Sequence record: MH992122.1
DNA length: 64,000 nucleotides
Strand: one strand, 5' to 3'
Origin: Escherichia phage OLB35
Of the stretch, positions 1,592-62,552 are shown in pieces. Every line of letters starts with the position of its first letter. Position 1 is the stretch's first letter. Under the pieces are notes generated by a model. The model was not told where the DNA came from. It was given only the letters and a program-made list of their open reading frames with translations, and did not search any database. The translations under genes and the position numbers were made by a program.

Positions 1592-2050
1592 TTATATGAC
1601 GGTAGTGAGCACCTTATATAATGATTTGCCCATTACATATTCCCATTGAGAAGGTTTAATTAAAGCGTATGCATCAAATTCAGGAATCTGTCGTCCGTCT
1701 GGGAATGTATGATAGGAATTACAAACACTGTTTCTGAATTGCTCGTGCTCTACAGGGATGGTATATAGGAACAGATGAATATTCTTATTGTCTGAGTAAT
1801 GATGTTCACCTAGGTCTTTCAGGAAGGCAGGGTCATATTGTGTAAACCCAGTTTCTTCTTCGCATTCACGAATAGCGGCTTCAATAGGAGATTCGCCAGG
1901 TTCGACACGGCCTTTAGGAATATCCCACCGATGAGCTAAAGAACCTTTAGGACGAGAACCAGTTACACGGCCCATGAATAACTCTTTATCTTCGGTAAGG
2001 AAAATAATACCGGCTGATAGCTCTTTCACTTTATTTTTCTTACTCATCAT
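1592..2050 (-). CDS. nudE: Nudix hydrolase
   Basis: Nudix box GRVEPGESPIEAAIRECEEETG; 152 aa; position next to e as in T4. Confidence 0.85.
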   Translation of the reverse strand: MMSKKNKVKELSAGIIFLTEDKELFMGRVTGSRPKGSLAHRWDIPKGRVEPGESPIEAAIRECEEETGFTQYDPAFLKDLGEHHYSDNKNIHLFLYTIPVEHEQFRNSVCNSYHTFPDGRQIPEFDAYALIKPSQWEYVMGKSLYKVLTTVI

Positions 2051-2276
2051 CTCGGTCCCATGATTTGGCCATTAATTCGGACATAAATTCTTCAATGCGC
2101 GTTTCTTTAGATGGACTTTCACTATTAGAGACCGCAAGTTTGTAATCTGCAATAGGACAGAACATATCAAGGTCCATATTAAGATCGTCTTTGATTTTTT
2201 CTTCTGACACATCTTTATCATATGTGTACAGATAACTATCACATGATTCTGATTTAATGTAAATTGCTATACTCAT
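2040..2276 (-). CDS. hypothetical protein
   Basis: ORF with likely ATG at 2276 (MSIAIYIK); overlaps neighbours by a few nt. Confidence 0.4.
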   Translation of the reverse strand: MSIAIYIKSESCDSYLYTYDKDVSEEKIKDDLNMDLDMFCPIADYKLAVSNSESPSKETRIEEFMSELMAKSWDRDDE

Positions 2277-2764
2277 CTCAAATTCCTGCATTCGGTAATA
2301 AAACGTTCAACTTCATTATTCTTGGCCTTTATCTTGTCTTTACGTTCCTGTAAACTACTTTTAACAAGATTAATAATGATGCCTATAGTACCTCCACCAA
2401 TAATACCACCAATAATACTTACGATAGTAGATGCTAATAAGATAGCGATAATATCTAATATAGCAAAGGCACTTACTTTAGTACTAAAAAACCACACCGA
2501 TGGTACAAATATAATCCATCCTGTTATCCATTGGCACTTATTGAAAAACTTTTCAAGCTCAGCTTGAGTTGTTCGTATTACTTCATCGATAGGTTGATAT
2601 CCATTAATGTATCTGTTCACGATAATACCTGCTGGTTTGTCGATTTTAAATGCTTGACATTGGTGTTTCACTAAATAAGATGGACATCCTGTCCAATCTA
2701 CTGAATAGTATGAAATACCTTCGTTGCCATCGTCTATATTAGACCAATATGTTTTGTTAATCAT
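2273..2764 (-). CDS. hypothetical membrane protein
   Basis: 163 aa, long hydrophobic stretch (GWIIFVPSVWFF...IIGGIIGGGTIGIII); C-terminus FITECR is part of the junction motif. Confidence 0.5.
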   Translation of the reverse strand: MINKTYWSNIDDGNEGISYYSVDWTGCPSYLVKHQCQAFKIDKPAGIIVNRYINGYQPIDEVIRTTQAELEKFFNKCQWITGWIIFVPSVWFFSTKVSAFAILDIIAILLASTIVSIIGGIIGGGTIGIIINLVKSSLQERKDKIKAKNNEVERFITECRNLR

Positions 2765-3450
2765 TACCAGCCTTCCATAGGGAATTCCAGATAAACTTGG
2801 GCATTGACACGAATTTCATTGGTGATCTTTTTAACTCGGTCTGTATTACGAGATACACGTCCGAACCAACGCCATCCATTACTAATTGCACGAGAACCAG
2901 TGTGCCATGTTTGCCAATCGAACTGAAGAAGAGTACGGTCTGGAGCTTCCCATTTCTCTAGTTCGCCTTTTTCAATTTTTTCGAGGACTTCTTTGTGCCA
3001 TTGGCGATAGATAAGTTCGCCATCAGGAATCTGACTGAACTCTGCAGTTCCTGTTGCAAAATGAGTAGGACACACGTCAGCGTTAACAAGACCAAGAATA
3101 TGTTCAGACAAATAGCGAGGATTGTCATAGTCAGGTTGTCCTGCAGTAATAAAATGTTGACCAACCGGAATATCCCGGCGCGGTACATCATCATGGTGAT
3201 AACCTGGAATAGCAGGATACCAACCAGGCATCAGCATATGAACCCGAGAATCAAATACAACATGTTGATTAGTCCAATCAATTGGGAGATTGACAATAAA
3301 GCTACGAGTAATAGGACCGCCGTTATCCTAAGCAAATTTTAAACTACAGTTAAAGAACATAGGCTCGTTCTTGATTTGATCATTAGAAATACCGCCGGCA
3401 AAACCACCTACTGCACGAGCTTGACTATTAAACACTTTAGAACTATTCAT
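2764..3450 (-). pseudogene. hypothetical protein interrupted by in-frame amber codon
   Basis: ATG at 3450 with SD GAGGA; in-frame TAG at 3328-3330 after 40 codons; same frame continues to 2764 (the 157-aa ORF of the track). Confidence 0.4.
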
Positions 3451-7228: not shown

Positions 7229-7252
7229 CCAAAAGGAGGACCGGAGTCCTCC
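7229..7252 (-). terminator. hairpin followed by T-run on minus strand
   Basis: stem GGAGGAC/GTCCTCC, loop CGGA, then TTTTGG on the minus strand; directly precedes the RBS of the next gene. Confidence 0.4.
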
Positions 7253-7854: not shown

Positions 7855-7924
7855 ATTATTACCTTTCAATTGGTGGTTTATTATCCAATGAGAGCATTAT
7901 ACTCTGCTCTCAAGAGTTTGTAAA

Positions 7925-8152
7925 TTATTTTTTAATCAAATTGACATAAAACTTGGCGTCTTCCGGGTGCATGCCTTCGCAGTATTCTTCAACCATGAAC
8001 TTCTTAACAGCTTCATAAGGACCACTCAGATTAAGCTCAGTTGTCCAAAACTTGGAATCTTGGGCTGAATCGATACGAACTTCAGGGTGTCGGTTGCGAA
8101 TAACTTCTTCGGTGTATTCATAATCAACGACATCAATACTAACTTTAGCCAT
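7925..8152 (-). CDS. hypothetical protein
   Basis: 75 aa; preceded by module M copy 1 (promoter plus conserved leader with GAGGAG). Confidence 0.45.
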   Translation of the reverse strand: MAKVSIDVVDYEYTEEVIRNRHPEVRIDSAQDSKFWTTELNLSGPYEAVKKFMVEEYCEGMHPEDAKFYVNLIKK

Positions 8153-8161
8153 TTTGTTTCT

Positions 8162-8635
8162 CCTCTGTAGTTGATAAGTCTTAACTATAGTATCACCATC
8201 ATTGGTGTTTGTACATCATTATTTTTAATTTTTCCAACTTAACAACCTTCAGCCAAGATACAACAGAGTTTTTATCTGAGGATTCAAATTCAGGCATTGG
8301 ACTTTCACCGCGAATAACTTCTTCGGTGTATTCATAATCAACGACATCAATACTAACTTTAGCCATTTTGTTTCTCCTCTGTAGTTGATAAGTCCTATAG
8401 TATCACCATCATTGGTGTTTGTACATCATTTATTTTTAATTTTTCCAACTTAACAACTTGTAGTGTCCTTCATTCATACGTGGTTTATCCCAAGAAATAC
8501 TAATATATGATTCGCCATCAATAGCTTTTTCTTCACCACCACCACTGATAGTCCTCTGTAGTTGATAAGTCCTATAGTATCACCATCATTGGTGTTTGTC
8601 AACTATTATTTTTAATTTTTCCAACTTAAAACTTG
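8162..8635. repeat. three tandem copies of a roughly 90-bp promoter/leader module (M) separated by partial gene duplicates
   Basis: module CCTCTGTAGTTGATAAGTC...TATAGTATCACCATCATTGGTGTTTG...TTTTTAATTTTTCCAACTTA at 8162-8255, 8376-8456, 8549-8635; 8300-8375 duplicates the 5' end of the 7925-8152 gene; 8457-8530 duplicates the 3' end of the 8626-8916 gene. Confidence 0.8.
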
Positions 8636-8916
8636 TAGTGTCCTTCATTCATACGTGGTTTATCCCAAGAAATACTAATATATGATTCGCCATCAATAGA
8701 AGTCGCCGGGTTTTTCTCTACCGTAAGACCTTCACTTTCCAGCCATTCAATAGTATTTGCGCATAAATCTGAAGAACACCTCATCGGAAACTGGCAAGAT
8801 TTTTCACCTTTAGATGCAGCGTTATACATCTTTTCTAAAATACGCTTTTGCACGTTTTTAAAAATGGTTTCAGCAGATTCTTCAGATTTTTTATTCAGTT
8901 CAGTATAAAGACTCAT
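8626..8916 (-). CDS. hypothetical protein
   Basis: about 96 aa from ATG at 8916 (MSLYTELNKK) with SD GAGGAG. Confidence 0.45.
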   Translation of the reverse strand: MSLYTELNKKSEESAETIFKNVQKRILEKMYNAASKGEKSCQFPMRCSSDLCANTIEWLESEGLTVEKNPATSIDGESYISISWDKPRMNEGHYKF

Positions 8917-9042
8917 AATATTCTCCTCATTAATAGGGCTCATAATATCTCAATCATTAGCTCATTTACGTATTTATAGTAACAGCATTCTCTGAGAGAT
9001 TCAAACTAAAAAGCCCCAACCTTTTGGCTAGGGTACAGAATG

Positions 9043-9507
9043 TTATTTGATTTGTTTAGCAGACCAAATGCGGTCTTTAATAAGTTTTTGGATATCTTCA
9101 ACATACTCAAGGCTATGAGCGTGAGGATTATCTTTGAAGCTATGTGCTCGTGCCAGTTTCTGGCCTTCAGTTTTGATTACCAAAAGTTCTTTAAGAATTG
9201 CTTCATACTTAGAAATAATTCCTTTGGCGATATTTTTTTCTTGAGCTGCTTTAGGGCCCGCTTTTGGTGCTGGTGCTTTACCTGTAGCTTTCTGGAACAA
9301 TTCACCTGATGCAGCTAGGCTTTTAAAAACTCGGCTAACAGTATTAGCATTAGTAAAACCTTCGGCTTTAAAATCTCTAATAAAACGGAAACGTTCTTCA
9401 TCAGAGGCGTCTTTGTAAGAATATTTACCTGCTTGAATTGCTGCAATCGCAGCGGCTTTTACATCTGAACTAGATTGTTCAGTCAAAAATTCTGCATATG
9501 ATTTCAT
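9043..9507 (-). CDS. internal-protein-like protein with CTS-like leader
   Basis: starts MKSYAEFLTE (compare T4 IP leader MKTYQEFIAE, L-x-E cleavage site); 154 aa, Lys/Ala-rich. Confidence 0.5.
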   Translation of the reverse strand: MKSYAEFLTEQSSSDVKAAAIAAIQAGKYSYKDASDEERFRFIRDFKAEGFTNANTVSRVFKSLAASGELFQKATGKAPAPKAGPKAAQEKNIAKGIISKYEAILKELLVIKTEGQKLARAHSFKDNPHAHSLEYVEDIQKLIKDRIWSAKQIK

Positions 9508-10249: not shown

Positions 10250-10326
<77 letters not shown>

Positions 10327-10329
10327 AAT

Positions 10330-10404
10330 TGGTGACCCTGGCTGGTTTCGATCCAGCTACCTATCAGTTATGAGCTGACAGCTCTCCCATTGAGCTACAG
10401 GGCC
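10330..10404 (-). tRNA. tRNA with anticodon CAT (Met-type; likely the AUA-reading tRNA-Ile as in T4)
   Basis: hand-folded cloverleaf: acceptor GGCCCTG/CAGGGTC, D stem GCTC/GAGC, anticodon loop CTCATAA, T stem GCTGG/CCAGC; 75 nt, CCA encoded. Confidence 0.75.
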
Positions 10405-43165: not shown

Positions 43166-44734
43166 ATGACTACTATCAAAACTAAAGCTCAGCTCGTAGA
43201 CAAATGGAAAGAACTGCTGGAAGGTGAAGGCCTGCCGGAAATCGCTAATAGCAAGCAGGCTATTATCGCTAAAATCTTCGAAAACCAGGAAAAAGATTTC
43301 GAAGTATCCCCTGAATATAAAGACGAGAAAATCGCTCAGGCATTTGGTTCTTTCTTGACCGAAGCTGAAATTGGTGGTGACCATGGTTATAATGCTCAGA
43401 ACATCGCAGCAGGTCAAACCTCTGGTGCAGTAACCCAAATTGGGCCGGCAGTTATGGGTATGGTTCGTCGTGCTATTCCTAATCTGATCGCTTTTGATAT
43501 TTGTGGTGTTCAGCCTATGAACAGCCCGACCGGTCAGGTATTTGCTCTCCGTGCAGTATATGGTAAAGACCCTATCGCTGCTGGCGCTAAAGAAGCTTTC
43601 CATCCGATGTATGCCCCAGACGCGATGTTCTCTGGTCAGGGTGCTGCTAAGAAATTCCCAGCTCTGGCTGCTGACACTACTACTGTTGTAGGTGATATCT
43701 ATACTCACTTCTTCCAAGAAACTGGTACTGTATATCTGCAAGCTTCTGCTGTCGTAACACTTGATTCTGGTGCAACTGATGCAGCTAAATTAGATGCAGA
43801 AGTTAAGAAACAAATGGAAGCTGGTGCACTGGTAGAAATCGCTGAAGGTATGGCTACTTCTATCGCTGAACTCCAGGAAGGTTTCAACGGTTCTACCGAT
43901 AACCCATGGAATGAAATGGGCTTCCGTATCGATAAACAAGTTATCGAAGCTAAATCTCGCCAGCTGAAAGCTGCTTACTCTATCGAATTAGCACAAGACC
44001 TCCGTGCAGTACACGGTATGGATGCTGATGCTGAACTGAGCGGTATTCTGGCTACAGAAATTATGCTAGAAATCAACCGTGAAGTTGTTGATTGGATTAA
44101 CTACTCAGCACAGGTCGGTAAATCTGGTATGACCCTGACTCCTGGTTCTAAAGCTGGTGTATTTGACTTCCAGGACCCGATTGATATCCGTGGTGCTCGT
44201 TGGGCCGGTGAAAGCTTTAAATCTCTGTTGTTCCAGATTGATAAAGAAGCAGTTGAAATTGCTCGTCAAACCGGTCGTGGTGAAGGTAACTTCATTATCG
44301 CTTCCCGTAACGTAGTTAACGTACTGGCTTCAGTTGATACTGGTATTTCTTACGCTGCACAGGGTCTGGCTTCTGGTTTTAATACCGACACTACTAAGTC
44401 TGTATTTGCCGGTGTACTTGGTGGTAAATACCGCGTATACATCGACCAGTATGCTAAACAGGATTACTTCACCGTTGGTTACAAAGGCGCTAACGAAATG
44501 GATGCAGGTATCTACTATGCTCCTTACGTTGCACTTACCCCACTGCGTGGTTCCGATCCTAAGAACTTCCAGCCGGTAATGGGCTTTAAAACTCGTTACG
44601 GTATCGGTGTTAACCCGTTTGCTGAAAGTTCCCTGCAGGCTCCAGGTGCTCGCATCCAGTCCGGTATGCCGTCTATCCTGAACAGCCTTGGTAAGAACGC
44701 TTACTTCCGCCGTGTATATGTAAAAGGCATCTAA
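43166..44734 (+). CDS. 23: gp23 major capsid protein
   Basis: 522 aa; ...LLEGEGLPEIANSKQAIIAKIFENQEKDF... near identical to remembered T4 gp23. Confidence 0.95.
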   Translation: MTTIKTKAQLVDKWKELLEGEGLPEIANSKQAIIAKIFENQEKDFEVSPEYKDEKIAQAFGSFLTEAEIGGDHGYNAQNIAAGQTSGAVTQIGPAVMGMVRRAIPNLIAFDICGVQPMNSPTGQVFALRAVYGKDPIAAGAKEAFHPMYAPDAMFSGQGAAKKFPALAADTTTVVGDIYTHFFQETGTVYLQASAVVTLDSGATDAAKLDAEVKKQMEAGALVEIAEGMATSIAELQEGFNGSTDNPWNEMGFRIDKQVIEAKSRQLKAAYSIELAQDLRAVHGMDADAELSGILATEIMLEINREVVDWINYSAQVGKSGMTLTPGSKAGVFDFQDPIDIRGARWAGESFKSLLFQIDKEAVEIARQTGRGEGNFIIASRNVVNVLASVDTGISYAAQGLASGFNTDTTKSVFAGVLGGKYRVYIDQYAKQDYFTVGYKGANEMDAGIYYAPYVALTPLRGSDPKNFQPVMGFKTRYGIGVNPFAESSLQAPGARIQSGMPSILNSLGKNAYFRRVYVKGI

Positions 44735-44758: not shown

Positions 44759-44788
44759 GGGAGACTTCGGTCTCCCATTTTTGGTTTT
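44759..44788 (+). terminator. rho-independent terminator after gene 23
   Basis: GGGAGAC-TTCG-GTCTCCC followed by ATTTTTGGTTTT; identical stem-loop to the one at 25409. Confidence 0.6.
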
Positions 44789-45056
44789 ATTTCTGTGCAA
44801 TTTCGATGTAAGTTTTCAAAATATTTTGCCAATTAGGCATACCTTCTTGGACATATGCTGGAGAACCGTCTTTGTTTTTGAATGATGCAAGTTTATCAGT
44901 GGCCCAATAGCCTTTAGCTCGAGCTTCAGAATCAACTTTCATCCATACTTTGTTGAAGGCATTACCATTAACTTTTGCACCATATTTTTCTACTAACTTA
45001 ACTGCTTCAGCTTCCAGAACTTTTAAAGTATCTCGTAAGAAACGTGCTTTAGTCAT
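44787..45056 (-). CDS. hypothetical protein on an early-promoter cassette, antisense to the late cluster
   Basis: 89 aa; preceded by the module M leader GACTTATCAACTACAGAGGAG and a promoter. Confidence 0.5.
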   Translation of the reverse strand: MTKARFLRDTLKVLEAEAVKLVEKYGAKVNGNAFNKVWMKVDSEARAKGYWATDKLASFKNKDGSPAYVQEGMPNWQNILKTYIEIAQK

Positions 45057-45086
45057 TTTGTTTACTCCTCTGTAGTTGATAAGTCT

Positions 45087-45116
45087 ATAGTATCACATAC
45101 CAAATACGTTGTAAAC
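45087..45116 (-). promoter_or_regulatory. early promoter plus conserved leader (module M copy)
   Basis: minus strand GTTTAC (45111-45116), 18-nt spacer, TACTAT (45087-45092); the leader matches the modules at 8162-8635. Confidence 0.5.
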
Positions 45117-45122
45117 AATCTT

Positions 45123-45130
45123 TATAAATA
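45123..45130 (+). promoter_or_regulatory. late promoter TATAAATA (gene 24)
   Basis: exact TATAAATA 27 nt upstream of the gp24 ATG. Confidence 0.55.
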
Positions 45131-45156
45131 ATCTATATCACATAAGGAAAAATGCA

Positions 45157-46440
45157 ATGAGTAAAATCCAAAAATTATTGCGTGAATCTACAACGTCTAC
45201 TAGCAACTCAATTGGTCGCCCAAATCTCGTTGCTTTGACTCGCGCTACGACTAAATTAATATATTCTGACATTGTAGCAACACAAAGAACTAATCAACCT
45301 GTTGCTGCTTTTTATGGTATTAAATATCTTAACCCAGACAACGAATTAACGTTTAAAACTGGTGCTACTTATGCAGGTGAAGCTGGATATGTAGACCGAG
45401 AAAAAATTACCGAGCTCACAGAAGAATCAAAAGCCACACTAAATAAAGGTGATTTTTTCAAATATAATAATATCGTTTATAAAGTGTTAGAAGATACACC
45501 ATTTGCAGATATTCAGGAAAGTGATCTAGAATTAGCTCTTCAGATTGCGGTCGTTCATTTAAAGGTACGGCTATTTTCAGATGCAGCGGTAACAAGCAAA
45601 TTTGAAAGCTCTGGTAGCGAAATTTCTGATGCAAGATTCCAGATTAATAAATGGCAAACTTCAGTCAAATCTCGTAAACTTAAAACTGGCCTCACGGTTG
45701 AATTAGCGCAAGATTTAGAAGCGAATGGATTTGATGCCCCTAACTTCTTAGAAGATTTGCTTGCTACTGAAATGGCTGATGAAATTAATAAAGATATTCT
45801 TCAGTCTTTAATTACTGTATCGAAACGTTATAAAGTTACTGGAATTACTGACACCGGATTTATTGACTTGAGCTATGCTTCCGCTCCAGAAGCAGGTCGT
45901 TCGTTATATCGAATGGTGTGTGAAATGGTATCACACATTCAAAAAGAGTCAACTTATACTGCAACGTTTTGCGTAGCTTCAGCTCGTGCAGCTGCTATTC
46001 TTGCTGCTTCAGGTTGGTTAAAACATAAACCAGAAGATGATAAGTATCTTTCACAAAATGCTTATGGATTCTTGGCAAATGGATTACCTCTTTACTGCGA
46101 TACTAACAGTCCATTAGATTATGTGATCGTTGGCGTAGTAGAAAATATCGGCGAAAAAGAGATTGTAGGGTCCATCTTTTATGCTCCATACACTGAAGGA
46201 ATGGATTTAGACGACCCGGAACATGTCGGTGCATTTAAAGTTGTAGTTGATCCGGAAAGCTTACAACCGTCTATAGGTTTATTGGTTAGATATGCTTTAT
46301 CAGCAAATCCTTACACAGTAGCAAAAGATGAAAAAGAAGCGAGAGTAATTGATGGCGGGGACATGGATAAAATGGCAGGACGTTCAGACTTGTCTGTTTT
46401 ACTCGGTGTTAAATTGCCTAAAATTATTATAGATGAATAA
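45157..46440 (+). CDS. 24: gp24 head vertex protein
   Basis: 427 aa, same length as T4 gp24. Confidence 0.9.
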   Translation: MSKIQKLLRESTTSTSNSIGRPNLVALTRATTKLIYSDIVATQRTNQPVAAFYGIKYLNPDNELTFKTGATYAGEAGYVDREKITELTEESKATLNKGDFFKYNNIVYKVLEDTPFADIQESDLELALQIAVVHLKVRLFSDAAVTSKFESSGSEISDARFQINKWQTSVKSRKLKTGLTVELAQDLEANGFDAPNFLEDLLATEMADEINKDILQSLITVSKRYKVTGITDTGFIDLSYASAPEAGRSLYRMVCEMVSHIQKESTYTATFCVASARAAAILAASGWLKHKPEDDKYLSQNAYGFLANGLPLYCDTNSPLDYVIVGVVENIGEKEIVGSIFYAPYTEGMDLDDPEHVGAFKVVVDPESLQPSIGLLVRYALSANPYTVAKDEKEARVIDGGDMDKMAGRSDLSVLLGVKLPKIIIDE

Positions 46441-60112: not shown

Positions 60113-60406
60113 TTATTTACGGAATGAAAGGAATGCTGGTGCTCGGAATGGAGTATCATCTTTAGAGTATTTAACTAATACGACCATTGGTACCTCTGTT
60201 TCTAAATGACCTGTCAGTACACCGATAAAAATTTGATCAGTGTGCTCAGGGTCACGAAAGTTTTTAAGAGGTTCCATAGCAATATGGAATGCACCTGGGA
60301 ATACTCGATTCAATTCGTCAATCACAGCTTCGTTAAAAACATCATCCGCTGGGATAGCATCTTCAACTACTAGTTCTTGACCATTAAAGCGAAGCATAGA
60401 TTTCAT
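60113..60406 (-). CDS. hypothetical protein (alt-adjacent)
   Basis: about 97 aa from ATG at 60406 with SD GAGGAA. Confidence 0.45.
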   Translation of the reverse strand: MKSMLRFNGQELVVEDAIPADDVFNEAVIDELNRVFPGAFHIAMEPLKNFRDPEHTDQIFIGVLTGHLETEVPMVVLVKYSKDDTPFRAPAFLSFRK

Positions 60407-60435
60407 AACGTTTTCCTCATGTTGTTGATGGGATG

Positions 60436-60465
60436 ATAGTATCACACATCCATGTGCTTGTAAAC
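60436..60465 (-). promoter_or_regulatory. early promoter
   Basis: minus strand GTTTAC (60460-60465), 18-nt spacer, TACTAT (60436-60441); overlaps the alt stop. Confidence 0.45.
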
Positions 60466-62552
60466 TATCCTTGAACAAATTTAAATGGAACCGATTCCAA
60501 ATCCATTAAAGATGCTAACAGTTTCAATCCTTTAGGAGCACTAGTTTTTTCTACAAATGTGGAGAACGATACCGGCTCATCTGATTCGATTTCACCAGTC
60601 ATAGCAACCACCTCGCCTGTTTCCATGAGAACATCGCCATCGTAAATGACTGCTTCATCCAACTGGTCCGAGGACATGACTTCAGCTTGAATAAATTTAA
60701 GGTTGGATTCTAAACCTGCACCGGTGTCAGATGACGCATCTGTAATTTTATTTATCTGCAAGAGAATGCCTCTAGGCAAAATAATTTCTTGCTCATTAGG
60801 GTGATTACTCAACTGTCCTGGATAAATCACGTTAACTTTATGAGCGCCATCAATAGCCCATCCAACGTTAACACGGATTTGTTCTGGTGCATGCATAGCT
60901 GTTCTTACTTGACTAGGAGAAATAGTAACACCTTCGTCATTATTGTCAATGCTAAGCTCTTTGCGAACTTCTTCAGGAGCAAGTCCAAGGGCAACGTTCT
61001 CTTTAAACCCGCCGAAAATAATAGGAGCTAGTGAAGTAGAAACATAGTTTCTGAAGTAGAATACCTTATTTTTAACCATTGCTTCGTAAATAGGCATTCT
61101 GATAGACTGAGCTCTATACAACGTTAGTCCTTCAGGTAAACGGTCTCCATTTAAAAACGCCGAATCAAGACCATCAATAGCGCGTTTAACTTCATCTTCA
61201 TCTGCAACATCATAAAAATCCGGTTTATAACGTCCTAACAACATATTATTGATATCGGTATACGCAGAAGAGGCATATTCACGAATAGCTCGTTTTTCAG
61301 CAACAGAGTATTGTTTAGGGTCACGATTCATTGTTATATTAAAGGTGCCTCTAGCCGATTCTCGTGCATAAGTATACATCACATTAGACAAGAACGCTGA
61401 TTTACGTTGTTTCCAAGTTTTTTCAGATACTTCAGCTAAAACGTCGTCAGCCAGTTGGAAATTATCTCGTCTAAAATCTTCAAACCATTCGTCTCTAATA
61501 GAGTCTGCAATTTCGTTTGCAGCTTCAACAAAAGCAGCTAATGCTTTAACAGATGTTGTTTTTTCAGTTTTAATTTTCTTAGCAAACTTTTCTAAAGTCG
61601 GCTTAATAACACTACCATAAGAAACTTCATCAGCAAATCTAAAGGATTCATCAATACGATTATAAATCTTATTTTCGATATCAGCAACTAAAGTGCCTTT
61701 TGCTGTAGACGATGCTTGGGCTAGTACGATTTCATATGCTTCAGGAAGTAATTCAGCTGTAGCTGGGCCACTAACTTCTTTAGCAGAATTTTCGTATTTC
61801 TGGAATAGCTCACCTTCTTGGCGGTCAGCTTCTAAAGATTGACTTGCTGCAATAGCGCGACGAGAAATTTTAGTACGAGCAATAACAGGCTTATCTTTAC
61901 GTTTTTCTTCTACAGCAGCAATAGAACCAGCGATAGCCGTTTCTTTGGTGACTTTTTCGCCAGTCTTTTTACTCACATAAACTTCACCAACATCAGAATC
62001 TACTTTCGTGTACAACTCTGTGTTAATGTTAGGGATGCCTTTAATATCTTCAATGTTGGCATTTTTACGAACCATCATCACATATGTGTGTTTACCTGTG
62101 AATTGATACATTGCAGACAATACTTTAAAACGACCACCGGTTTTAGTAGAAACTAAACGAGCAAGAAGAGTTTGAAGTTGTTGTCCACGTCCTTTCAATT
62201 TCTTGGTAGGGAATCGGAACAAAACTGCATCCATACGAAGAGCTTTAACCTGTTCATACACTGTATTGAAAATGGTGTTGATTGCATCAATAGGAGCAGG
62301 ACCAAGACCATTTTTCAATTCAGCGAGATTACCCTTTTCAGAAAGACTCATAATAACGACATGAGCGTATTTGTCACCAAGTTTAACTTGTTTTACAGCA
62401 TCGCCTTCGGAAAGGTAAGAGAATAAACGAACTACGATGTTTGTATCGATATCACCAATTTTCCAGACTTGTGGAACTTTGGCTTTAGGGTTCAAATTGA
62501 CGACAGGAAGACTGCCTTCAGATTCAAACACTTCATTTAATTGTTCAGACAT
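60465..62552 (-). CDS. alt: Alt ADP-ribosyltransferase (virion-packaged)
   Basis: 695 aa (T4 about 682); position between gene 54 and DNA ligase. Confidence 0.75.
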   Translation of the reverse strand: MSEQLNEVFESEGSLPVVNLNPKAKVPQVWKIGDIDTNIVVRLFSYLSEGDAVKQVKLGDKYAHVVIMSLSEKGNLAELKNGLGPAPIDAINTIFNTVYEQVKALRMDAVLFRFPTKKLKGRGQQLQTLLARLVSTKTGGRFKVLSAMYQFTGKHTYVMMVRKNANIEDIKGIPNINTELYTKVDSDVGEVYVSKKTGEKVTKETAIAGSIAAVEEKRKDKPVIARTKISRRAIAASQSLEADRQEGELFQKYENSAKEVSGPATAELLPEAYEIVLAQASSTAKGTLVADIENKIYNRIDESFRFADEVSYGSVIKPTLEKFAKKIKTEKTTSVKALAAFVEAANEIADSIRDEWFEDFRRDNFQLADDVLAEVSEKTWKQRKSAFLSNVMYTYARESARGTFNITMNRDPKQYSVAEKRAIREYASSAYTDINNMLLGRYKPDFYDVADEDEVKRAIDGLDSAFLNGDRLPEGLTLYRAQSIRMPIYEAMVKNKVFYFRNYVSTSLAPIIFGGFKENVALGLAPEEVRKELSIDNNDEGVTISPSQVRTAMHAPEQIRVNVGWAIDGAHKVNVIYPGQLSNHPNEQEIILPRGILLQINKITDASSDTGAGLESNLKFIQAEVMSSDQLDEAVIYDGDVLMETGEVVAMTGEIESDEPVSFSTFVEKTSAPKGLKLLASLMDLESVPFKFVQG

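Follow-up and report, generated by a model that had tools for sequence, protein, structure and literature searches.

The window that we analyzed is a 64,000 nucleotide (nt) stretch of the genome of Escherichia phage OLB35 (MH992122.1), a Mosigvirus (RB69-like T-even phage), and the subject of this study is an array of repeated early promoter and leader sequences within it. The array is located in the e-to-tRNA hyperplastic region, a variable accessory-gene region in which the minus strand carries all of the local genes as well as the repeated promoter copies. In the order of transcription there is a gene coding for a 154 amino acid (aa) protein, a terminator hairpin, a gene that we refer to as gene A, the repeat array, an FRD3-family gene (frd.3), e.6 and e.5 (Table 1). 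The DNA surrounding the array exhibits 93-99% identity to many Escherichia and Shigella Mosigviruses, with phage CCU7 being the closest (99%). A single copy of the promoter module is located between gene A and frd.3 in CCU7, PhAPEC2, AV118 and others, and in CCU7 no gene fragments accompany it. The OLB35 window contains three direct head-to-tail copies of this ~85-nt early promoter and leader module (8153-8628), with start-to-start spacings of 177 nt and 210-214 nt.

The three copies, designated casA, casB and casC, each have an A/T-rich tract (GGAAAAATTAAAAATAA), a 17-nt promoter spacer, a TGn motif ahead of the -10 hexamer and a leader of ~25 nt. Three tandem promoter/leader copies had been reported in a preliminary description of this DNA made from the sequence alone, and this is borne out by self-BLAST, where 8310-8699 aligns with 8096-8524 (E=3.7e-112, a 433-nt overlapping unit) and casA aligns with casC (8552-8629 vs 8161-8242, E=2e-26), as well as by a profile built from the copies, which scores at E about 1e-22 at each of the three sites. 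Self-alignment was the check that the description itself had proposed, with dissimilar copies as the outcome that would count against it, and the copies are significantly similar. Specifically, the cores extending from the -35 to the Shine-Dalgarno (SD) sequence are 89-96% identical to each other vs 62-77% identical to same-design promoters elsewhere in the window. The -35 and -10 hexamers are also as described. Regarding the reported GAGGAG at the end of the leader, this is true of casB and casC, where the arrangement is GAGGAG-N7-ATG, but not of casA, which is truncated at the SD (GAGGA) such that its leader reads GAGGAC. Each copy additionally has changes of its own, with casA exhibiting a patch that creates the TTGACA -35 and a 1-nt deletion, casB one extra A in the A/T-rich tract, and casC a TTAA insertion (8184-8181). 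No donor promoter for the TTGACA patch was found in the window or in CCU7, nor is there such an allele among 117 homologous records.

None of the three copies has a stem-loop upstream of its promoter (fold z-scores computed with the upstream flank are +0.64, +0.15 and -1.16), and the only structure within them is a 5-bp hairpin, CACCAatgaTGGTG, contained in the 17-nt promoter spacer (8579-8597, 8402-8420 and 8192-8210). This spacer hairpin is also present in related promoters of RB14 (CACCAaggaCGGTG) and at CCU7 11132 (CACCAaggaTGGTG). No terminator-like site was found within 7925-8916, and no known RNA family matches the array at E<=0.1. The record of phage ATK47 has no promoter annotated at the array site, with only the e.6 promoter marked there.

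Table 1. Features of the 64,000-nt window that are discussed in the text, in window positions.
Feature	Position	Strand	Details
tRNA-Arg and tRNA-Met	10250-10404		
154-aa gene	9507-9043	minus	
Terminator hairpin	9033-9014	minus	
Hairpin and promoter unit	8960-9033	minus	Upstream of gene A; TTGAAT-N17-TACTAT
Gene A	8626-8916	minus	Short allele of RB69ORF146c homolog (phrog_18312); 96 aa
casA	8552-8625	minus	-35 TTGACA 8602-8597; -10 TACTAT 8579-8574; SD GAGGA 8556-8552, then C
casA A/T-rich tract	8625-8603	minus	
casB	8367-8460	minus	-35 TGTACA 8425-8420; -10 TACTAT 8402-8397; SD GAGGAG 8379-8374; ATG 8366-8364
casC	8153-8244	minus	-35 TGTACA 8215-8210; -10 TACTAT 8192-8187; SD GAGGAG 8165-8160
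Piece 1	8916-8552	minus	CCU7 nt 1-366: gene A and casA up to GAGGA
Piece 2	8551-8525	minus	27 nt, absent from CCU7 and TP3; long gene A allele (probable source), about nt 362-393
Piece 3	8524-8310	minus	CCU7 nt 218-431 (99.07%): gene A 3' end, casB, frd.3 nt 1-57
Piece 4	8309-8247	minus	63 nt of ORF145c, nt 58-124, 98.5% to TP3, 1-nt deletion
Piece 5	8246-7925	minus	CCU7 nt 285-602: last 22 nt of gene A, casC, whole frd.3
Gene A 3'-end duplicate	8436-8524	minus	Gene A nt 218-306, ancestral reading ...HYKLLSWKN*
Gene A tail before casC	8246-8225	minus	Gene A nt 285-306
Chimeric 55-aa ORF	8199-8366	minus	frd.3 nt 1-57 (8366-8310), ORF145c nt 58-124 (8309-8247), read-through into casC DNA
frd.3 (FRD3 family)	7925-8152	minus	Intact, 75 aa; PF05798 full length, E=3e-38
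e.6	7854-7261	minus	Followed by e.5
Dispersed family member (partial)	45054-45135	minus	-10, leader, SD, ATGnCTAAAG; 94% to casB over 51 nt

An alignment of the 992 nt from the start of gene A to the stop codon of frd.3 with the same interval of CCU7 and of typing phage 3 (TP3) reveals that the array is a mosaic of five pieces (Table 1). Along the transcribed strand, short CCU7-like sequence alternates with patches of other variants of the locus, initially of a long gene A allele and subsequently of ORF145c, a conserved gene of 54-58 aa (phrog_5461). Each return to the CCU7-like template falls upstream of the point of exit, and thus the cassette is present in three copies with gene stubs between them. 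The preliminary description had recognized these gene fragments, which are real, as 25 codons each; they are smaller than that, with the duplicated 5' end of frd.3 being 57 nt (19 codons) and the duplicated 3' end of gene A being 70 nt (23 codons), extending to 89 nt when counted to the ancestral stop codon. Both duplicates are 100% identical to the full genes in the window, down to a base at gene A nt 260 that is specific to the window. Since the stubs share the window's own alleles, the copying occurred within this lineage. The gene A stub has no in-frame start codon and retains the ancestral end of the protein, whereas full-length gene A has a private 1-nt deletion (CAAGTT-TTAAG; window 8626-8640) so that it ends in HYKF* (96 aa) in place of HYKLLSWKN* (101 aa). 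The latter ending is that of most Mosigviruses, where the last codons overlap the A/T-rich tract. This deletion, like the casA TTGACA patch, is present in 0 of the 117 homologous records.

Two further fragments had been missed by the preliminary description, one being the 63 nt of ORF145c and the other the 27-nt piece that directly follows casA. The latter appears to derive from a 167-aa form of gene A (the long allele) that other Mosigviruses carry, although a match of 27 nt cannot prove this. Specifically, the long allele contains ACAAAGGACTTGGGGTTGGGGTGGTGAAGAAAAAGAAATTG where the corresponding window sequence is ACAGAGGACTATCAGTGGTGGTGGTGAAGAAAAAGCTATTG, which amounts to 32/41 identity with an exact core of 16 nt, or of 18 nt when the allele of phage 55 and AV116 is used, and the alignment score was reached by 0 of 2000 shuffled sequences. 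The 16-mer core is absent from the whole CCU7 genome. This source was recognized after sampling of the ~790-nt and ~1002-nt locus classes described below. Other candidate sources were rejected: a diverged short gene A 3' allele (tblastn and blastn found nothing beyond the shared IDGES... part), the host (no match in 5,426 E. coli genomes), and another part of the phage (nothing in the window or CCU7). The first base of the long-allele patch is a C, and it is for this reason that casA reads GAGGAC.

Examination of the four joints indicates that three of them are in coding DNA, with a single joint end being inside a cassette (the casA SD). Three of the four also exhibit 4-9 nt of (imperfect) microhomology. 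At joint 1, where the cassette SD meets the long allele, ACAGAGGA is matched with ACAAAGGA (7/8); at joint 2, between the long allele and short gene A nt 218, the shared sequence is ATTG (4/4); and at joint 4, between ORF145c nt 124 and gene A nt 285, GAAGGTTATAAAG is matched with CAAG-TTGTTAAG (9/12). Joint 3, which connects frd.3 nt 57 with ORF145c nt 58, has no microhomology, and both of its breakpoints are exactly 57 nt past the ATG that follows the shared cassette. An in-register swap of this type might be explained if ORF145c and frd.3 were old paralogs, but we rejected this idea as intact ORF145c has neither a Pfam FRD3 hit nor a BLASTP alignment to frd.3.

Joint 3 also lies within an open reading frame (ORF) of 55 aa. 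The piece after casB had been described as a duplicated gene start, which is correct for its frd.3 5' end, but the ORF is a chimera in which codons 1-19 are from frd.3 and the middle is from ORF145c, after which a 1-nt deletion shifts the frame into casC DNA. The chimeric ORF matches PF05798 (Phage_FRD3) over profile positions 1-34 only (36.5 bits), which compares with 130.5 bits over positions 1-75 of 75 for intact frd.3 (gathering cut-off 28.1). Likewise, only residues 10-46 of the chimera match phrog_5461 (58 positions, E=1.3e-10), while the intact TP3 and RB14 ORF145c proteins match this family end to end (E about 1e-36). The window thus holds a fragment of the ORF145c/RB14ncORF134c family and not a member of it. 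Intact ORF145c is located in the interval between the cassette and frd.3 in RB69, JS09, TP3, JN02 and others, and in the e.8-e.6 interval in RB14. A separate rearrangement that is private to phage EP32a (676-978 of the compared stretch) cuts gene A at about nt 261 and fuses it to the A/T-rich tract, so that the C-terminus of the EP32a protein (...TKLKIMMYKHQGW*) is translated promoter DNA in the same frame as the tail of the chimeric ORF.

The region from gene A through frd.3 is variable among Mosigviruses, with 146 records falling into at least five classes of arrangement. These are short gene A, cassette and frd.3 (~600 nt); the same three parts with ORF145c and a second promoter in addition (~813 nt); long gene A, cassette and frd.3 (~790 nt); long gene A, cassette, ORF145c and frd.3 (~1002 nt); the EP32a class with its private deletion joining gene A nt ~261 to the A/T-rich tract; and AV109-type records that do not have frd.3. 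Both donor pieces of the array are carried together by an APCEc01-type genome. The polymorphism for the presence or absence of ORF145c has a crossover in the shared leader from SD to ATG, GAGGAG(T)AAACAAAATG, and a neighboring indel of ORF149c and e.8 (both in CCU7 but not in the window) brings the -10 of one promoter up against the region where the next promoter begins. At the population level, exchanges do therefore cluster at promoter cassettes, as has been described for promoter-early stem-loop (PeSL) cassettes (PMC2839356, PMC4122927). The preliminary description had anticipated gene swaps bounded by cassettes in a comparison of this locus across relatives; the variable arrangements are evident, but the joints of the array are mostly not cassette-bounded, and CCU7, the relative that is free of gene fragments, has a single copy. 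The array itself was not found in 50,697 phage genomes, among which the hits that cover it best contain one or two promoters. The exact joints gave no match in IMG/VR or in JGI metagenomes, nor did the chimeric ORF or the truncated gene A product when looked up as exact proteins.

With regard to the module as such, a profile search of the whole CCU7 genome found about 20 modules that share its design, with the early-gene strand carrying every one of them and with the order A/T tract, GTTTAC or TGTACA, N17, TGnTACTATAG, ACnTATCAAC(T/A)AC, GAGGAG and ATG. There are about 3 close copies per Mosigvirus genome, and over 100 Mosigviruses conserve the TGTACA-N17-TAYTAT promoter. RB14/T2-type Tequatroviruses have this promoter, spacer hairpin included, ahead of their ORF145c homolog. 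The cassette thus amounts to a conserved early promoter of an ordinary type with a short leader that is unusual only in its local triplication. A fourth, partial copy that escaped the preliminary description is found elsewhere in the window (Table 1), upstream of an 89-aa ORF (44787-45056) that is located between the gp23 and gp24 genes. This ORF is a phrog_6003 member with its own early promoter, and is antisense between the late genes gp23 (43166-44734) and gp24 (45157-46440). The insert (44787-45135) is polymorphic, being present in about 120 of 153 Mosigvirus records, with the others having a homing endonuclease or a different sequence.

A block within the leader, (T)ATCAAC(T/A)AC, is common to about 15-20 unrelated early genes across the CCU7 genome, where it is 7-9 nt past the -10 hexamer, and in the window it is found at 8364-8425, 45054-45115, 757-815 and 60405-60466, all on the minus strand. 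The block is placed at the predicted transcription start and in the 5' untranslated region, ahead of GAGGAG and ATG. Promoter function alone does not account for conservation of a transcribed leader, and the block could reflect either homogenization of the cassettes by recombination or a site for a factor.

We consider it likely that the array is a complex duplication, private to this genome and probably recent, of the single intergenic early promoter/leader between gene A and the FRD3-family gene, produced by template switching or illegitimate recombination. Specifically, variants of the locus would have been brought together by co-infection, and in such a mixed infection recombination-dependent replication may have allowed microhomology-guided template switching, or successive illegitimate or short-homology recombinations, between the short template and the other variants. 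Because three of the four joints are in coding DNA, the cassettes would have been carried along as passengers inside the duplicated blocks as opposed to being sites of crossover. This proposed origin is consistent with the duplications and deletions at microhomologies that occur in T4 (PMC9391042).

There are several points that weigh against this reading. The sequence examined is an assembled record, in which an assembly problem is conceivable. The frd.3/ORF145c joint lacks microhomology, and the long-allele patch matches the sampled alleles at only 78% identity, which places its exact donor (with the sought reading ...AGGACTATCAGTGGTGGTGGTGAAGAAAAAG...) outside of our sample. The private change in each cassette copy implies some age or an error-prone repair, which is uneasy with an array that is both recent and unstable. 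The order and number of events are irrecoverable, as a single event with multiple switches is as good a fit as three or four separate ones. Finally, the firing of promoters from all three copies is a prediction.

An alternative, which the preliminary description proposed, is PeSL-mediated shuffling in which repeated cassettes serve as crossover sites for homologous exchange or for excision and integration of a mini-circle. Much of what surrounds the array is in keeping with this, as the locus is a hypervariable hotspot in a T-even hyperplastic region, the module is one of a dispersed family and is laid out as in a PeSL (A/T tract, promoter, SD, ATG), the ORF145c polymorphism crosses over in the shared leader, one joint end is in the casA SD, and the neighboring ORF149c and e.8 indel joins two promoter regions. 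Where it falls short is in the array itself, as no copy has a stem-loop, three of the four joints are in the coding sequence of gene A, frd.3 or ORF145c, and the DNA between the cassettes consists of gene stubs and not whole ORFs, such that a mini-circle donor would already need to contain the stubs. We regard PeSL-mediated shuffling as an unlikely origin of these three copies.

It is improbable, in our view, that the array represents a snapshot of regulatory or protein innovation, whether selection keeps the triplicated promoter, with its newly perfected TTGACA -35, for a higher early expression of the FRD3, e.6 and e.5 accessory genes or for a newborn chimeric protein with a C-terminus read from promoter DNA, acting for example against a host defence. 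It is likewise improbable that the ATCAAC(T/A)AC block is an undescribed regulatory site as opposed to a by-product of cassette exchange. A version of the first idea, which is compatible with the duplication described above as to how the array arose and departs from it only in the reason for its persistence, is that selection maintains it for a higher expression of frd.3, e.6 and e.5 or for a useful 55-aa chimera. The perfect TTGACA -35 of casA that is private to this genome, the intact -10 and spacer in all three copies, the perfect SD and ATG of casB, and private changes that suggest persistence for some time are all in its favor, and the amplifications of T4 tifA provide a precedent (PMC9391042). 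We nevertheless hold this version to be quite improbable given that only a promoter and no complete gene is amplified, that the array is in one genome only, that FRD3, e.6 and e.5 are without known function, and that the chimeric ORF ends by a frameshift in promoter DNA. Lastly, an assembly or sequencing artefact, such as a contig in which variants of the locus from a mixed population were joined, would fit the presence together of pieces of three variants, the lack of a second instance in the searched genomes and metagenomes and the one private change that is a homopolymer-length difference, but is very improbable as the 0-9 nt of imperfect microhomology at the joints is, as shared k-mers, too short for an assembler to be misled, the flanks match CCU7 at 99.7% identity and show no raised error, and the duplicated stubs are exact.

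As to its consequences, the duplication would place three co-directional sigma70-type early promoters such that they read into frd.3, e.6 and e.5, with frd.3 being the gene that the array is predicted to serve. Since there is no terminator-like site between 8916 and 7925, all three promoters should feed frd.3 and e.6. Judged by consensus (TTGACA, 17 nt, TGn-TACTAT), casA is predicted to be the strongest of the three, and it is the only one that a simple promoter scan detects. With its broken SD, casA would head an untranslated or nearly untranslated leader; its residual SD is followed only by a 23-codon GTG ORF, and the gene A stub offers no in-frame start. In casB the SD and ATG are intact, and this copy should express the 55-aa FRD3/ORF145c chimera. 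The array is also likely to be prone to collapse by homologous recombination. Recombination in T4 needs ~50 bp (Singer 1982, as cited in PMC2839356), and as the direct repeats here are 70-215 nt in length with 99-100% identity, ready collapse is expected unless selection holds the array.

The GGAG in the leader had also been noted as a motif of the RegB endoribonuclease. The full RegB/S1 site is a single-stranded 11-nt sequence, GGAGRAYARAA (PMC1702504), and casB and casC have the GGAG core in a RegB-like site, GGAGAAACAAA, that matches 9 of its 11 positions (mismatches at positions 7 and 8). In contrast, casA reads GGACTATCAGT at this position, with a C at position 4 (GGAC) and no A-rich tail, and so is predicted to be a poor and unlikely substrate of RegB. 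The annotation of CCU7 includes a RegB homolog, at a location that lies outside the window.

Gene A has an alternative upstream ATG at 8943, and the hairpin and promoter unit at 9033-8960 ahead of it is the only unit in this stretch with a full stem-loop-plus-promoter (PeSL-type) layout. The window (8900-9050) is without ORF149c and e.8, both of which are present in CCU7 between the 154-aa gene and gene A (1800-3085 of the compared stretch). The joint of this indel fuses the -10 region of the ORF149c promoter (broken after TGTTACT) to bases just past the e.8 stop codon, which results in the hybrid TTGAAT-N17-TACTAT promoter. The 154-aa gene (9043-9507) and CCU7 ORF149c (2389-2952 of the compared stretch) both belong to phrog_2280, and so are adjacent paralogs in this region. 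A paralogous relationship of gene A with e.8 was rejected. TP3 and AV118 have a quite different intergenic region upstream of gene A, with a full hairpin and a GTTTAC-N17-TACTAT cassette.

On the other side of the array, the FRD3-family gene is located in the e region, while T4 has frd.3 in the frd region. The e.6 promoter (7881-7924, minus strand) is strong (TTTACA-N17-TATAAT, 11/12) and overlaps an 8-bp hairpin, GAGAGCAG...GCTCTC, that spans the -10 and has a fold z-score of -3.8, with 0 of 200 shuffled sequences being equally stable. Between e.6 and e.5 (7235-7252) there is a hairpin, GGAGGACCGGAGTCCTCC, that is a perfect palindrome, has T-runs on both strands and resembles a bidirectional terminator, and PhAPEC2 and ATK47 have a terminator annotated at the same place.

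Among known systems, the array can be compared with the PeSLs of T4-type phages (Arbiol et al. 2010, PMC2839356; Comeau et al. 2014, PMC4122927). As predicted from sequence, the module shares with these elements an A/T-rich tract, an early promoter, an SD and a start codon at its 3' end, and its -10 (TACTAT) fits the TAYWAT of the T-even PeSL promoter form TTTACW-N17-TAYWAT (PMC4122927). Other similarities are that the module belongs to a repeated family that is concentrated in hyperplastic regions beside small ORFs differing between close relatives, and that it is associated with indels. However, there are several differences. The array copies lack the defining stem-loop/terminator upstream of the promoter, the DNA between the cassettes is composed of gene fragments as opposed to whole ORFs, and the joints that form the array are mostly outside of the cassette. 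Crossover within the element, which is a PeSL feature, is observed for the ORF145c polymorphism in the SD-ATG leader, while in the array it is limited to the one joint end in casA. Encapsidated mini-circles are another feature by which PeSLs are recognized (PMC2839356).

A second comparison is with T4, where duplications and deletions occur at 6-10-bp microhomologies (Srikant et al. 2022, PMC9391042, in which the earlier T4 work of Wu 1991, Kumagai 1993 and Mosig 1987 is cited). Segmental amplification in T4 and the OLB35 array both involve head-to-tail local duplications that include a promoter, are situated in an accessory region, have very short homologies at the joints (three of the four in the array), and are expected to be unstable. 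The array differs in that its units are only 177-214 nt, contain promoter/leader sequence and gene stubs with no complete gene, and are not identical to each other. Its joints also carry inserted patches from other alleles of the locus, which a simple amplification would not have, and there is no known selective agent.

The module can also be compared with the 57 early promoters that are predicted in RB69, many of which precede novel small ORFs (Nolan et al. 2006, PMC1524935). These have a similar A-rich tract, GTTTAC-like -35 and -10, but are single promoters, and a tandem triplication with gene stubs is not described in that study. Shuffling of the internal-protein (IP) locus of T-even phages (Repoila et al. 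1994, as discussed in PMC4122927 and PMC2839356) is similar in that small accessory genes are swapped between relatives at conserved flanking regulatory sequences. From these accounts, it is whole genes that are swapped at the IP locus, whereas the OLB35 array is a scar of partial pieces.

Overall these comparisons indicate that the array is a new instance of a known phenomenon, namely the recombinational remodeling of T-even hyperplastic regions around early promoter cassettes, and not a new kind of element. It provides a natural example of such remodeling with joints that can be read, as its 992 nt can be assigned to three co-circulating locus variants. It also qualifies the PeSL model, as conserved promoter cassettes may be passengers of microhomology or template-switch events in addition to being substrates of homologous exchange. 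Through events of this type, promoters would come to stand in tandem and small chimeric ORFs would form, both of which supply raw material for changes in regulation and for the birth of ORFans.

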